Shown here piece by piece: positions 9,502-63,665 of a DNA stretch of 64,000 nucleotides (its first letter is position 1; each line of letters starts with the position of its first letter). The stretch spans positions 62,001-126,000 of the forward strand of contig BAAIJX010000024.1 in the NCBI GenBank assembly GCA_054600435.1, read 5' to 3'. The notes under the pieces are model-generated. The model searched no databases and was not told the DNA's origin. It was given only the letters and a program-made list of their open reading frames with translations. The position numbers and the translations under genes are program-made. Source of the DNA: Neophaeotheca triangularis (Eukaryota).

Positions 9502-11091
9502 ATGTACGCCTTCGTCGCGGCTAGTCTGGTCGCTTCATCCTACGCAGCTCTCATCCCCCGCGATGACTGCTGTTTCGGCCTGTCATCCTCAGGTGGCGTC
9601 TCCGGCATGCTGGGACAGCTCGAAGATGGCCAGAACCGTGTAGTCACCGGTGGCGATCAGCTCCCCAACCCAAACGCACAGTACTGCATCAACGGTGATG
9701 GCGCCATTACCGACGGCCGTGGAAACGGCTGCATTCTGACACCTCCCACTACCCAACTTCAATGTGACGAGGGCGCCGCTCCAATCCCTGGTTTCTCCGT
9801 CTCACCAGACGGTACTCTTCAGTACCAAGGCGACTCGACGTTCTACGCCTGCCCAGCTGACGAGGGCGAGTACAACTTCTACACCCAGCCTGTCGAGGGT
9901 CAGTCGAAGTGTGTTGAAGTTTCTTTGAGCACCGGCGGGAAATGCTCAGGCAATGGCGACAATGGTCAACCCAAAGGTGGAGAAGGCAACAACGGCAAGC
10001 CTACCACTACTCAACCGGCTCCCGAGGGTAACCAGGGCAAGCCTTCTGCCACCAAGCCAGCCTCGGACAACAGCTATGGGAAGCCCTCGGCTACCAAGCC
10101 TGCTCCAACCCAGCCGGCTCCTGAAGACAACGGCAAGCCAGACAACGGCAAGCCAGACAGCGGCAAGCCTGACGAGGGCAAGCCTGACGAGGGCAAGCCA
10201 GACCAAGGCAAGCCAGACCAAGGCAAGCCAGACCAAGGCAAGCCAGACCAGGGCAAGCCCGACCAGGGCAAGCCAGACGAGGATATGCCAGACCAAGGCA
10301 AGCCTGACGAGGGCAAGCCTGACGAGGGCAAGCCTGACGAGGGCAAGCCTGACGAGGGCAAGCCTGACGAGGATATGCCAGACCAAGGCAAGCCTGACGA
10401 GGGCAAGCCTGACGAGGGCAAGCCTGACGAGGGCAAGCCTGACCAGGACAAGCCAGACCAAGACAAGCCAGACCAAGACAAGCCAGACGAGGGTAAGCCA
10501 GACGAGGGTAAGCCGGACCAAGGCAAGCCAGACCAAGGGAAGCCTGACGAGGACAATGGGAACGAAAACAACGACAACCCATCGCCCACTAAGCCTGCAG
10601 GCAAGACGTGCCCAACGAACCTCTCCGGGACCTACGAGTACCCTCACCTGATCGTCCCAGTCAAGGAAGACAACCCTGACAAGGCTTACGGCACCTCTTA
10701 CAACGGCGAGGTCAGCGACTCGACTTCATCGATCTTCAACTTCGATATTCCCTACTCTTACGAAGGCAAGACATGCACCGTTGTCTTCATGTTCCCGAAG
10801 AAGGAAGATCTCGAGACCTCCGACTACGATTTCTCCGGCAGTGGGGACGTCGATTTCTCCATGCTTGAGAAGCCTGCTACTGAGGACACGACTTACAATA
10901 CTTGCCCCAAAGATGCGGAAGACTATGGCACCACCCACATTCAGCCTGGCAACAGCTACGTGGTCTCCACTGGTGATTGCCAGGCCGGCCAGCGAGTTGG
11001 CTACAAGATGAGCGCTGGAGACGACACCGATCTGACTTGGTTCAATGACTACAATCCTGCAAGTGTGGGCATGTTCATGACCGTTTGCTAG
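9502..11091 (+). CDS. Secreted cell-wall protein: PIR-like Cys-rich N-domain, repeat linker, But2-like C-terminal domain
   Basis: Signal peptide MYAFVAASLVASSYAA. N-domain GQLEDGQNR...ITDGRGNGCILTPPTTQLQCD. C-domain TCPTNLSGTYEYPHLIVPV...SIFNFDIP...GKTCTVVFMFP...WFNDYNP. Confidence 0.85.
   Translation: MYAFVAASLVASSYAALIPRDDCCFGLSSSGGVSGMLGQLEDGQNRVVTGGDQLPNPNAQYCINGDGAITDGRGNGCILTPPTTQLQCDEGAAPIPGFSVSPDGTLQYQGDSTFYACPADEGEYNFYTQPVEGQSKCVEVSLSTGGKCSGNGDNGQPKGGEGNNGKPTTTQPAPEGNQGKPSATKPASDNSYGKPSATKPAPTQPAPEDNGKPDNGKPDSGKPDEGKPDEGKPDQGKPDQGKPDQGKPDQGKPDQGKPDEDMPDQGKPDEGKPDEGKPDEGKPDEGKPDEDMPDQGKPDEGKPDEGKPDEGKPDQDKPDQDKPDQDKPDEGKPDEGKPDQGKPDQGKPDEDNGNENNDNPSPTKPAGKTCPTNLSGTYEYPHLIVPVKEDNPDKAYGTSYNGEVSDSTSSIFNFDIPYSYEGKTCTVVFMFPKKEDLETSDYDFSGSGDVDFSMLEKPATEDTTYNTCPKDAEDYGTTHIQPGNSYVVSTGDCQAGQRVGYKMSAGDDTDLTWFNDYNPASVGMFMTVC
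10132..10551 (+). repeat. Coding minisatellite, 28 x 15 bp, encoding (G/D)(K/M)PD(E/Q/N/S)
   Basis: Unit ggcaagcc(t/a)gac(g/c)a(g/a), counted from the translation. The variant unit DMPDQ recurs 90 bp apart. Confidence 0.97.
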
Positions 11092-60238: not shown

Positions 60239-61920
60239 GAATGTGTACTTTCCTATTCGGGGGGATGGGAAAAAGGGAACGGGACGAAAAGGTATTGTCA
60301 TTATTGGAGGCGCGGAAATGCTGAGATGGGCGTTTGATGGACGGATGGATTGAGAAATTGGCGGCACTGTGTAAGAGTTATCAAGAGACAGAGAATGATA
60401 CCCACACTTTACCTTGCTTCAACCCAGAAGCGTCACGGAATGGTAAGCTACAACGTAAGGACGCAGCGGTCTCCTTTTCTTTTCCATCCAATTCATTAAT
60501 TTTTCCACGCGAGTTCGGATCAAGTTTGCCCGCCTGGGGGTGGTTTACCGTTTGCGTTGCGCCGGCCATGACTGGTGCTCTTGCGTTGTGAAAAGAGGAG
60601 AAAAAATGTTCGAGAGTCCGTTTGCGACCATGACGGCCCTTTTTTCGCTACCAGCTTTGGACTGCAGGGAAGATGGCGTGGGTCGAGGTAAGAGCTGCCG
60701 TTTTCTTGGTCTCATTTCGGAAGAAAGCTGCCGCGATCTCTGTCTCACTCGCTCCGCCAAAGATATCAAACATCATGCCTCGCACTAGAAAGATGGGTAG
60801 CAGCGCGGAATCCAAACGCAGTCGTCTATAAATGACCTCGATGGCGCACGTCGCTTGGTACACGTACGGATTGACTGCTCGTCAATGGGGGAATATCGCA
60901 TTCTTCAAAGCCATCTCCCTCGAGCTCTTCGTGCTTTCGGTCTCTGATGGACCGACACACAACTGGAAAGTCCTAGGTGAAGAGGCCGAGTAGAATTCGA
61001 CATGACACGCGAATATGACTAGTCTCGTGGGTTGCGCCTGATGTTGAAGTTGGTGATGTGTACCTAGCATTTCCCCCGGCTGGATTTGCTCTTGATGACT
61101 TCCCGCCGTTTTCCACGGAGATTCGGTGCTCGTTCTTCCAGCTAGCTCCTTTCACGAAGGTTCGAGGCGAGCAGAAGATCACGACATGTTGGCAGAGTCT
61201 CGTTGGGTGTTTACATGTTGGCGGCCATGCATCGGCGCGAAAGATACCGAATACTTTTCTCTCGGCCGAGCTTGATGAGGGCGCGACAGATGAGTGAGAA
61301 TGCGACCGGCTGTATAGTCCCCTACTGGAACAACTGGTCTGAGTACCTTAGCTCTTCCCCTCGCTTACTCTTCAATGCACGGTCGGCGACTGTATTTGAA
61401 GACTGCCCCGAACGATGTTCTTCTTGGGATAGATTGAGCTTTCGACTCCCACGTGGTCCGCTAGCGACTGTGTGCTCGCTAGGTTCTCGTCCTCTCCGGT
61501 ATGATATCCGCTCGATAACTCTCTATGCCATGATTTGAGCGCACGAGGAATACCTGGGTCACACCTTGCGAACGATTCGCTAAACATTACCTACCTCAAC
61601 GCAAGCGTAGTCGGTTCTCGAGCACGGTATCGCATGTGTCCGAGTACTAGCTTCATCGAGCATGAAAATCCCACGGAGGCCCCATTCTATGCCATCGATA
61701 CTGTGATCTAGCATTAGACAAAGCATGTCTTGTATCGGATTATTACCATTGACAGCGACCCTCCCGAGCAGCAAGGGGCGCTCCCCTTTTGTACTATGTA
61801 GACGTCAACAATATTATTAATGCGCGAACGTGCTGACTCATCACTGTTACTGGTTCACCAGTGGCACGATGCTTGCCCCAAGCAGGCTCAGTGGTCTAGT
61901 CGTATGATTGTCGCTTCGGG

Positions 61921-61949
61921 TAATACCCAGCAGTTAACGCTGCCGAATT
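61921..61949 (+). other. Canonical tRNA intron (position 37/38), 29 nt
   Basis: Begins one base 3' of the anticodon and contains CCGAA, complementary to the anticodon-loop TTCGG. Removal restores the GTCGC/GTGAC stem and a 7-nt loop. Confidence 0.88.
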
Positions 61950-61981
61950 TGTGACAGGTCCCGGGTTCAAATCCCGGCTGA

Positions 61982-62037
61982 GTGAGTTTAAATCAACCAA
62001 GTCAAAGGATCAGAATTGATTCTAATAATTAAATTAG
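61982..62037 (+). other. Putative 56-nt spliceosomal (U2-type) intron between tRNA positions 69 and 70
   Basis: 5' GTGAGT, branch TTCTAAT (CTAAT at 62022-62026), 3' TAG at 62035-62037. Excision gives CTGA|GCC-C, complementary to the 5' GGCTCAG. Confidence 0.8.
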
Positions 62038-62059
62038 GCCCTTCGAACTATTCGAAATC

Positions 62060-62089
62060 TTTTTGGCGTTTTTTAAACCTTTTTTTTTT
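62060..62089 (+). terminator. RNA polymerase III terminator T-tracts (T5, T6, T10)
   Basis: The first runs of 4 or more T downstream of the tRNA start begin 19 nt after the restored 3' end; none occurs inside either intron. Confidence 0.85.
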
Positions 62090-62357
62090 GCCGGAATATG
62101 AACCGCTGGGTGTTACCCGACGTGACAATCATAGCTTGCCTCCGGGGGCACTTGCGGCGAGCATGTTATCTTTTTACGTTCGGGACGATTGTACTACTAT
62201 CGTAAGTCTATATTCCTTCTAGCGTCGTCTTACTTCGGAAATAGTACAAGGTATGCATGGGTAAGGTTCGTCGGTTGCACAATCGCGGTCGTACCTGGAA
62301 GTCACCTCTTAAAGTACTTTTCAAGTCTGTAGGGCTTGGCAATAATGCCGACGGACA

Positions 62358-63665
62358 CTATCTTGCCATTGCACGAGATAGACTCTGTCGAAATCGTGCA
62401 GCTACACCGTCAGATGCAATGTTCCTCCCTATCAGTACAATTTTTCCGCCACCTCCAGACCCATCACTTCCACCATTGGCGTCGATCAGCTCAAAAATCT
62501 CTCTTACGCCTTGAAGCACCTTCACAGAACCCGAATGCATTGGCAACCTCCCCTTGACGCGATGAACCTCCCAACTACCCCTTTCCCCCTCGCACGGTAG
62601 CTTACCCTCCCATAACGTCGATCGAAGCCATCTATCCAGCTTCGGTAGCGAAGCCTCATCCAGAACGGGTACATCCAGCACAATAGTTCCAATTGCCGGA
62701 TCCAAATGACTATGCCCCTTGCTCGCAAAATCTAGCGCATCGGCAGAAATATCATCGTAAGCATGCAAATCCAGCACCAGCCCTTCCAGCTCCGGTATCC
62801 GGCTGTGGTCGGTCACCTCAACCTTCGCAAGAGCATTGATACTCTGCACCCTATCCTGCACAGCCTGCAACTCCGCCTCGGAAACAAGATCAGCCTTGTT
62901 AATAACAACAACATCGGCGTGAGAAATCTGTAAATGCGCAGTCGACAGATGCGGGCCATGAGCGTGTGAGCCGGCCTCATCATCCTCGACTTGCTCCTCG
63001 CCGACAGGCTCATCCAGACTGCGTAAAACATTCTTCGCATCTACGAGCGTCACAATGCCATCGAGGTAGATTGTCGAGCCCAAGCCCTCGTCAACCCAGA
63101 AGAGGGGAGCGAGATTTCCGGGATCAGCCAGTCCAGTCGTTTCGAGAAGAATGTAGTCGAAAGTCCCGCGCCTCTCCATCAGCGATTCGATGGCATTGAC
63201 GCCGCTGTCTTTGACCGAGCAGCAAATGCATCCGTTGGCAAGGTCAAGCCATTCTTCCGCTTTGGTGTCGCCTTGGGAGACGGTCAGGGAACGCTCGATG
63301 TCGCTGCTATTGCCGAATTCTGTTATATAGATAAGGAGTCAGTTGATTTGACTGAGGGAGTATATTTTTGTTGGTGCTGATTACGGCACTAACCTACCGT
63401 TCAAAATTACTGCGATTTTCTTGCCATGGCGTGCTGTGAGGATGTAATTTAGGAGGGTGGTCTTGCCTGCTCCTAGGTAACCTGCGTGGCCGTTTAACAA
63501 TTGTCCCGTCAATGAAGATCAAGGTCTTCTATATAAAATAAACTCACCCGTGATGATCGTTATGGGAACTCTAGAACTCGGAATATCTGATGAGCTAGCT
63601 GTTTCGTCGACAGCCTGGCCATCAGCGTCGACAAGCATAGGAGGAGCATCGTCGTCGTCGTTCAT
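62358..63665 (-). CDS. ZNG1: CobW/COG0523 zinc-chaperone GTPase (ZNG1/CBWD), 3 exons
   Basis: [22 protein letters not shown]...[19 protein letters not shown] (CxCC), [14 protein letters not shown], CobW-C RVKG...QGVREIF. Confidence 0.93.

Follow-up and report, generated by a model that had tools for sequence, protein, structure and literature searches.

We found that a proline transfer RNA (tRNA) gene of the fungus Neophaeotheca triangularis is interrupted, in the 3' strand of its acceptor stem, by a 56-nucleotide (nt) insert that has the donor, branch and acceptor signals of a spliceosomal intron. The gene, tRNA-Pro(CGG), lies at 61885-62041 on the forward (+) strand of the 64,000-nt stretch of DNA that we analyzed (GenBank assembly GCA_054600435.1, contig BAAIJX010000024.1, positions 62,001 to 126,000 of the forward strand; hereafter, the window). 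It is the single tRNA gene of the window, and its coordinates include both the insert and an ordinary tRNA intron. We lean toward the view that this is a working nuclear gene, transcribed by RNA polymerase III (Pol III), whose precursor would be spliced by the spliceosome before its 3' end is trimmed. As part of this best reading, the gene would carry two introns of different kinds, one of the endonuclease type and one of the spliceosomal type. The anatomy of the gene, the agreement of the insert with local introns, its persistence in a relative and the recurrence of the same design in other tRNA genes were all seen directly.

The tRNA body was recognized by both Rfam and ARAGORN. When the locus was searched alone, 61885-61985 matched the Rfam tRNA model with 34.4 bits (gathering score 29). 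ARAGORN, with introns allowed, called tRNA-Pro(cgg) with a 29-nt intron that separates position 37 from 38; it reports this intron as 61922-61950, which is equivalent to the placement given below (a T flanks either side). The box names used below are presumed from the consensus. The parts of the gene are as follows.

61885-61920, + strand: tRNA-Pro(CGG) positions 1-37 (Rfam tRNA, 34.4 bits; ARAGORN cloverleaf)
61885-61891, + strand: 5' acceptor strand GGCTCAG (sequence, Rfam, ARAGORN)
61892-61902, + strand: A-box-like stretch (presumed name)
61917-61919, + strand: anticodon CGG (Rfam, ARAGORN)
61921-61949, + strand: ordinary tRNA intron, 29 nt, at 37/38 (ARAGORN)
61950-61981, + strand: tRNA positions 38-69, with the 3' strand of the anticodon stem, the variable loop, the T arm and CTGA (Rfam, ARAGORN)
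61964-61974, + strand: B-box-like GGTTCAAATCC in the T arm (presumed name)
61982-62037, + strand: spliceosomal-type intron, 56 nt, G+C content 0.27, T runs of at most 3 (sequence, motif scan)
61982-61987, + strand: donor GTGAGT, matching GTRAGT
62022-62026, + strand: branch CTAAT, with the branch A at 62025, 12 nt from the end of the insert
62035-62037, + strand: acceptor TAG, the first AG past the branch
62038-62041, + strand: 3' exon of the mature tRNA, GCC (positions 70-72) and discriminator C73 (sequence, ARAGORN)
62042-62089, + strand: 3' trailer and Pol III terminator-like T runs (sequence)
62060-62064, 62069-62074 and 62080-62089, + strand: T runs T5, T6 and T10 (sequence)

The initial annotation of this DNA had described a tRNA-Pro(CGG) that breaks off after position 69, then a 56-nt AT-rich insert and GCCC, together with an ordinary intron at 37/38. 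All of these were present where it placed them. The CTGA that ends at 61981 is the first four letters of the 3' acceptor strand. With the insert left in place, the last two positions of the acceptor stem are a G-U pair and a G.G mismatch. When the 56 nt were removed in a script, from GT to AG, ARAGORN reported seven perfect Watson-Crick acceptor pairs and a discriminator C. Both forms of the stem were as the annotation had predicted. With the acceptor stem formed by processing, and with the anticodon loop and T arm intact, Rfam and ARAGORN give the cloverleaf of a tRNA-Pro. The annotation was also correct in placing the Pol III T tracts behind GCCC: within 61885-62120 the only runs of at least four T are T5, T6 and T10, all 3' of GCCC and none inside the gene. 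The trailer between GCCC and the first of these runs is 18 nt.

Such genes had been suggested to escape tRNA finders, and this held in part. ARAGORN at its default settings missed the gene, and Rfam, run over the entire window with gathering thresholds, gave no match, but ARAGORN finds the gene once introns are allowed. On 600 bases searched with laxer filters, Rfam reported the same tRNA at the same score, above the gathering score. The whole-window miss was therefore due to speed filters and not to the score.

We found that the insert resembles the messenger RNA (mRNA) introns of its own neighborhood. Both strands of the 64-kilobase (kb) window were scanned with a strict intron motif (GTRAGT, 15-70 nt, CTRAY, 4-18 nt, YAG), which gave seven matches, the insert being one of them. 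The six others carry the same donor consensus, GTRAGT, are 41-85 nt long and place the branch A at a distance of 11-15 nt from their 3' ends. Their removal in a script joined open frames of at least 27 amino acids on each side in every case (6/6). In two of the six the joined frames are very long (529/247 and 467/87 amino acids), so at least these two are real mRNA introns. The likeness in donor, branch, acceptor, spacing and length that the initial annotation had drawn was borne out by these six matches. The insert is more AT-rich than they are (G+C 0.27 versus 0.34-0.55). Its donor, the spacing of its branch and acceptor, its length and the stem restored on its removal are those of a U2-type GT-AG intron.

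The arrangement is unlikely to arise by chance. Taking the donor as given, we shuffled the downstream 154 nt 50,000 times and counted shuffles in which a YAG was followed by the three missing stem letters and had a CTRAY 7-30 nt upstream of the YAG. Such a stem-restoring acceptor appeared in 0.14% of the shuffles (0.0014). The observation is real and far from chance. One argument of the initial annotation fell away: 78% of shuffles of the insert also had no TTTT run, so the lack of TTTT inside the insert says nothing about Pol III read-through. A search of the 64-kb window for further copies of the insert turned up none, and the idea of an introner family was set aside.

We found the same architecture in tRNA genes from metagenomes. 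The scan pattern was a T arm (GGGTTCAAWTCCCGG), 1-6 free letters and GTRAGT; the query held no branch site, acceptor or restoring exon. It returned 18 loci, three of which (L007, L011 and L016) share the combination of a tRNA with a GTRAGT insert.

L016 is a tRNA-Glu(TTC) with the 5' acceptor strand TCCGATA and an ordinary intron of 28 nt. Its 3' acceptor strand breaks after one letter, at 66/67, where a 51-nt insert begins (GTAAGT, ACTAAT, CAG). Behind the insert come the six missing letters, the discriminator, 16 more letters and a T7 run. Unspliced, three of its seven acceptor pairs are non-standard according to Rfam. ARAGORN with introns allowed finds nothing at this locus until the 51 nt are removed, and then finds tRNA-Glu. 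Restoration of this stem by chance occurred in 0.008% of shuffles (8e-5). L011 is a second Glu gene, from a metagenome with the same prefix. Its tRNA letters are identical to those of L016 up to the break, and GTAAGTT follows at the same place, after which the contig ends. Its ordinary intron is 10 nt long, and both this intron and the upstream flank are unrelated to those of L016. The pattern is what selection on the tRNA and on the donor would be expected to leave, and it would be hard to obtain from two dead copies. With the insert in place, no acceptor stem can form in the Glu tRNA.

L007 is a tRNA-Pro(AGG) with the 5' acceptor strand GGTCTGG and an ordinary intron of 52 nt. Its 3' strand breaks after six letters, at 71/72; the 50-nt insert (GTGAGT, TACTAAC, CAG) is followed by CC. 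Removal of the insert replaces a G.G at the end of the stem with G-C and adds C73, and in this way the window gene and L007 both regain a CC 3' end. An Rfam search of L007 reported no match at E values up to 1, although ARAGORN finds this tRNA.

With the window gene included, Glu tRNA and two Pro tRNAs are affected, and the breaks fall at 66/67, 69/70 and 71/72. The 3' exon of the precursor is 23 nt in L016, 65 nt in L007 and, up to the first T run, 22 nt in the window. The inserts of the window gene, L016 and L007 are not significantly alike (p = 0.21, 0.30 and 0.08 against shuffles) and so look like independent introns; for the same reason we dropped the idea of one mobile intron family. We also noted that AATC precedes the first terminator run (T5-T7) in the window (62053-62064), L016 and L007.

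We are inclined to think that these genes represent a hidden class: nuclear tRNA genes of fungi, and perhaps of other eukaryotes, with a true spliceosomal intron in the 3' acceptor strand. Our confidence in the class is somewhat higher than in the window gene, mainly through L016 and L011.

The other metagenome loci were set aside. L001/L015, L003/L004, L009/L012 and L013 are non-tRNA sequence. L006/L017 and L008/L014 are complete tRNAs in which the tRNA's own acceptor strand and trailer spell GTRAGT. L002/L018, L005 and L010 resemble tRNAs; T runs follow them closely, and none has an exon that would restore the stem. L008 and L014 are two long contigs with a tRNA-Glu-like gene that has a G-T closing pair, and the next tRNA starts within about 120 nt; the cluster resembles those of organelles, viruses or bacteria and does not count among the intron cases. 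The same pattern gave three loci in prokaryote genomes (596 billion bases), none of them with a rescued tRNA (0/3), and no loci in viral contigs.

We found that the insert persists in a relative. Four DNA sequencing runs were compared with the window over 61600-62400; contigs were placed from runs X2, X3 and X4 and none from X5. X2 has the same organism label as the probable source run of the window and comes from a different sample; it counts as one relative. Its flank at 62101-62400 differs from the window at 22 of 300 nt (~7% divergence). One X2 contig spans 61918-62088 without gaps and retains the insert; it starts at 61918 and so lacks the 5' half of the tRNA. It differs from the window at four positions: 61984, 62011, 62014 and 62048. 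The change at 61984 (G>A) turns the donor GTGAGT into GTAAGT, still within the consensus, and leaves position 72 mismatched if the stem is read unspliced. The changes at 62011 and 62014 are in the interior of the insert and that at 62048 is in the trailer. The covered tRNA letters and the ordinary intron show no listed difference, and neither do the branch, the acceptor and GCCC. For the 68 covered letters of tRNA and ordinary intron, about five differences would be expected at the flank rate. This pattern weakly suggests constraint on the tRNA and the splice signals.

The other placements were less extensive. X4, which has another organism label, is 99% alike over 61832-61963, and its contig ends before the insert. 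This contig is near-perfect from 61832 into the tRNA and unrelated upstream of 61832, a break that suggests a rearranged flank or a second gene copy. The X3 contig was rejected as a relative: it holds a different, intron-less tRNA with letters in common at 61885-61921 only. In X2, 61600-61650 is covered by two contigs with depths of 58.7 and 52.9, one of which has a 2-letter deletion at 61619; these look like two haplotypes or a mixed sample.

If the gene works as we propose, Pol III would start just upstream of 61885, read through both introns and stop at T5, T6 or T10. Read-through of both introns would be expected because no run of four or more T occurs before 62060. The insert would be recognized like a local mRNA intron, through a GUGAGU donor, a CUAAU branch and a UAG acceptor, and the spliceosome would excise it as a lariat and join A69 to G70. 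Formation of the 7-bp acceptor stem and its C73 would have to await this excision. The ends would then be finished by RNase P, by RNase Z with a cut after 62041, and by the CCA-adding enzyme; RNase Z would have to follow splicing because an earlier cut would discard GCCC. On the 29-nt intron of the anticodon loop, the tRNA splicing endonuclease and ligase would act in a separate reaction. We infer Pol III transcription, excision by the spliceosome and the order of these steps from what is known of Pol III and of tRNA maturation. For the spliceosomal interpretation put forward by the initial annotation, then, the anatomy, the match to local introns and the comparative cases speak in its favor and the atypical D-loop speaks against it, while the excision step itself is deduced.

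Several observations weigh against a working, spliced gene. A D-loop normally has conserved G18 and G19. Here the D-loop is AGTCGTA (61898-61904), with one of the usual two Gs replaced by C, and the Rfam alignment places UCG opposite the consensus UGG, so that the conserved GG is not present. The missing G could be a mark of decay. The X4 contig carries the same D-loop letters, which are either a trait of the lineage or an early mark of decay. The comparison with X2 involves 14 conserved signal letters, which at ~7% divergence have little statistical power. Moreover, the X2 support is a single foldback contig of 227 letters, in which + strand 61923-61978 is joined to - strand 62088-61918 (a joint of opposite strands at 61978/62088), and its depth is 50.8 compared to 115.7 for the flank, or about half. 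A second X2 contig (depth 20), with four differences over 61923-61969, departs from the window sequence within the T loop, which may mean that a broken or rearranged copy is present in X2 as well. An intact Pro(CGG) gene may exist elsewhere in the genome, and by wobble the CCG codon could be read by a Pro(UGG) tRNA. The unspliced Pro form lacks just the terminal pair and so need not be useless. Finally, a search for the taxonomic place of the metagenome loci gave no Pfam families for eight reading frames.

Two side observations bear on the same loci. Past 61969, the second X2 contig continues into unrelated letters and a long A run, and an additional copy, inverted or broken, may be present in X2. 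A 58-amino-acid frame of L007 matched unnamed bacterial clusters only in an Atlas look-up.

Some of these points would fit a dead pseudogene, the main rival reading, which we regard as possible but doubtful. Intron-like DNA, either introner-type or an intron that had been reverse-spliced and reverse-transcribed, would have landed in an intact Pro(CGG) gene; the insert would not be productively removed, and other Pro tRNAs would decode CCG. The missing D-loop G would fit a dead gene, the low-depth and foldback contigs of X2 hint at instability of the locus, and the conservation between the window and X2 is too low in power to speak strongly against decay. A precise insertion would, in addition, leave GCCC behind in any case, so the restored stem alone is no proof of function. 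In contrast, the anticodon loop, ordinary intron, T arm, GCCC and terminators are all intact, and the signs of a pseudogene that we observed amount to one atypical D-loop letter and the insert itself. The absence of differences in the 68 letters covered by X2 and a sole donor change that stays within the consensus are also not what a dead gene would predict. Nor would dead copies be likely to leave the design recurring in three other tRNA genes, above all in the Glu paralogs, which agree in every tRNA letter and in the donor and yet have flanks and ordinary introns unrelated to each other.

It is improbable, in our view, that the gene works unspliced. RNase Z would cut after the A at 61985, giving a stem that ends with G-U, G.G and A73, and GCCC would be a relic. 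ARAGORN and Rfam do accept the unspliced form, and in the window gene and L007 the last pair alone is broken. However, the full set of splice signals, and the GCCC and terminators right behind the insert, would then be unexplained. Position 72 would be G in the window and A in X2, both of which mismatch G1, and the CC end common to the two Pro genes arises by removal alone. L016 forms no acceptor stem unspliced, so this explanation cannot cover the whole set.

That the tRNA splicing endonuclease cuts the insert at a fold like a bulge-helix-bulge, as in Archaea, Cyanidioschyzon and nucleomorphs, is very improbable: non-canonical tRNA introns outside 37/38 do exist in those lineages (available parts of PMC4033280 and PMC9602550), but a simple script, run with no positive control, found no bulge-helix-bulge solution at the junctions of the window gene, L016 or L007, in the minimum-free-energy fold of the precursor the insert is base-paired internally and not across the junctions, the yeast endonuclease cuts only at 37/38 (available part of PMC4033280), where the gene's 61921-61949 intron lies and the insert, at 69/70, does not, and the GT, branch and AG signals would be left unexplained.

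A working gene spliced by the spliceosome would matter for several reasons. Reviews treat tRNA splicing and spliceosomal splicing as separate systems, and a spliceosome-dependent tRNA, if true, would join the two. It would mean that Pol III tRNA genes, and not just small nuclear RNA (snRNA) genes near the catalytic center, can take in spliceosomal introns, which would bear on the origin of new introns. It would impose an order on tRNA maturation, with splicing ahead of 3' trimming. Decoding by certain tRNAs, and their supply, would depend on the spliceosome, and some of these tRNAs would need the tRNA endonuclease as well, for a second intron. The tRNA gene sets of some fungi would be under-annotated, since neither ARAGORN with default settings nor Rfam on the whole window picked up this gene.

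Two features of the window are separate from the tRNA gene. The first is a long 15-nt tandem repeat array at 10031-10631 (unit about GACGAGGGCAAGCCT), in which a 206-nt unit recurs in 26 overlapping copies spaced 15 nt apart and which probably encodes a five-residue protein repeat. The second lies next to the tRNA gene and is given for context only; it assigns the window to Ascomycota.

62358-63179, - strand: last large exon of a CobW/ZNG1-family GTPase gene

In a full-text literature search, which left subscription journals largely outside and could have missed an older description, we found no description of a spliceosomal intron in a tRNA gene. The word stem "spliceosom" is absent from the available part of a 2014 catalogue of tRNA gene diversity (PMC4033280), and it occurs once in the available part of a 2023 review of tRNA processing, in a contrast of the two kinds of splicing (PMC10275265). 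The accessible text on tRNAscan-SE 2.0 treats non-canonical introns in archaea only (PMC8450103), and according to that of a 2025 paper, the three types of intron in eukaryotes are not related to one another (PMC12530127).

Bulge-helix-bulge introns and tRNA genes with multiple introns are described for Archaea, Cyanidioschyzon merolae and nucleomorphs (available parts of PMC4033280, PMC3978253 and PMC9602550). Like the insert described here, these introns lie outside 37/38, are sometimes multiple and are missed by standard tRNA finders. Unlike it, they are defined by an RNA fold and cut by the endonuclease, whereas the insert has spliceosomal signals and no such fold was found. Introner-like, transposon-derived introns offer a possible ready-made source of an intron, going by the portion of PMC11282704 available. 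Unlike those elements, the insert has no other copy in the window, and the three inserts compared are not significantly alike. The spliceosomal introns of ribosomal RNA (rRNA) genes are also found in a non-mRNA gene that is not read by Pol II; those are in Pol I rRNA and the one here is in a tRNA. Bhattacharya et al. 2000 is said to be the source for spliceosomal introns in rRNA genes.

The closest likeness is to the introns of fungal snRNA genes. In the available part of PMC5855946, spliceosomal introns are recorded in fungal U1, U2, U5 and U6 snRNA genes and in rRNA genes, tRNA is not on the list of non-coding genes that bear them, and the intron of Schizosaccharomyces pombe U6 is removed by the spliceosome, a precedent in a Pol III transcript. 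Like the S. pombe U6 intron, the insert is a short GT..branch..AG intron of a fungus, and it interrupts a gene that encodes a small non-coding RNA with a defined structure and would be read by Pol III. As with snRNA introns, the interiors are not conserved and the insertions appear to be independent, at different positions. Unlike the snRNAs, a tRNA is outside the spliceosome, so reverse splicing into an RNA at the catalytic center is not directly applicable as an origin. The tRNA gene differs further in that it also has an endonuclease-type intron and would therefore need two machineries, and in that the mature 3' exon, across the genes described here, is just 2-7 nt.

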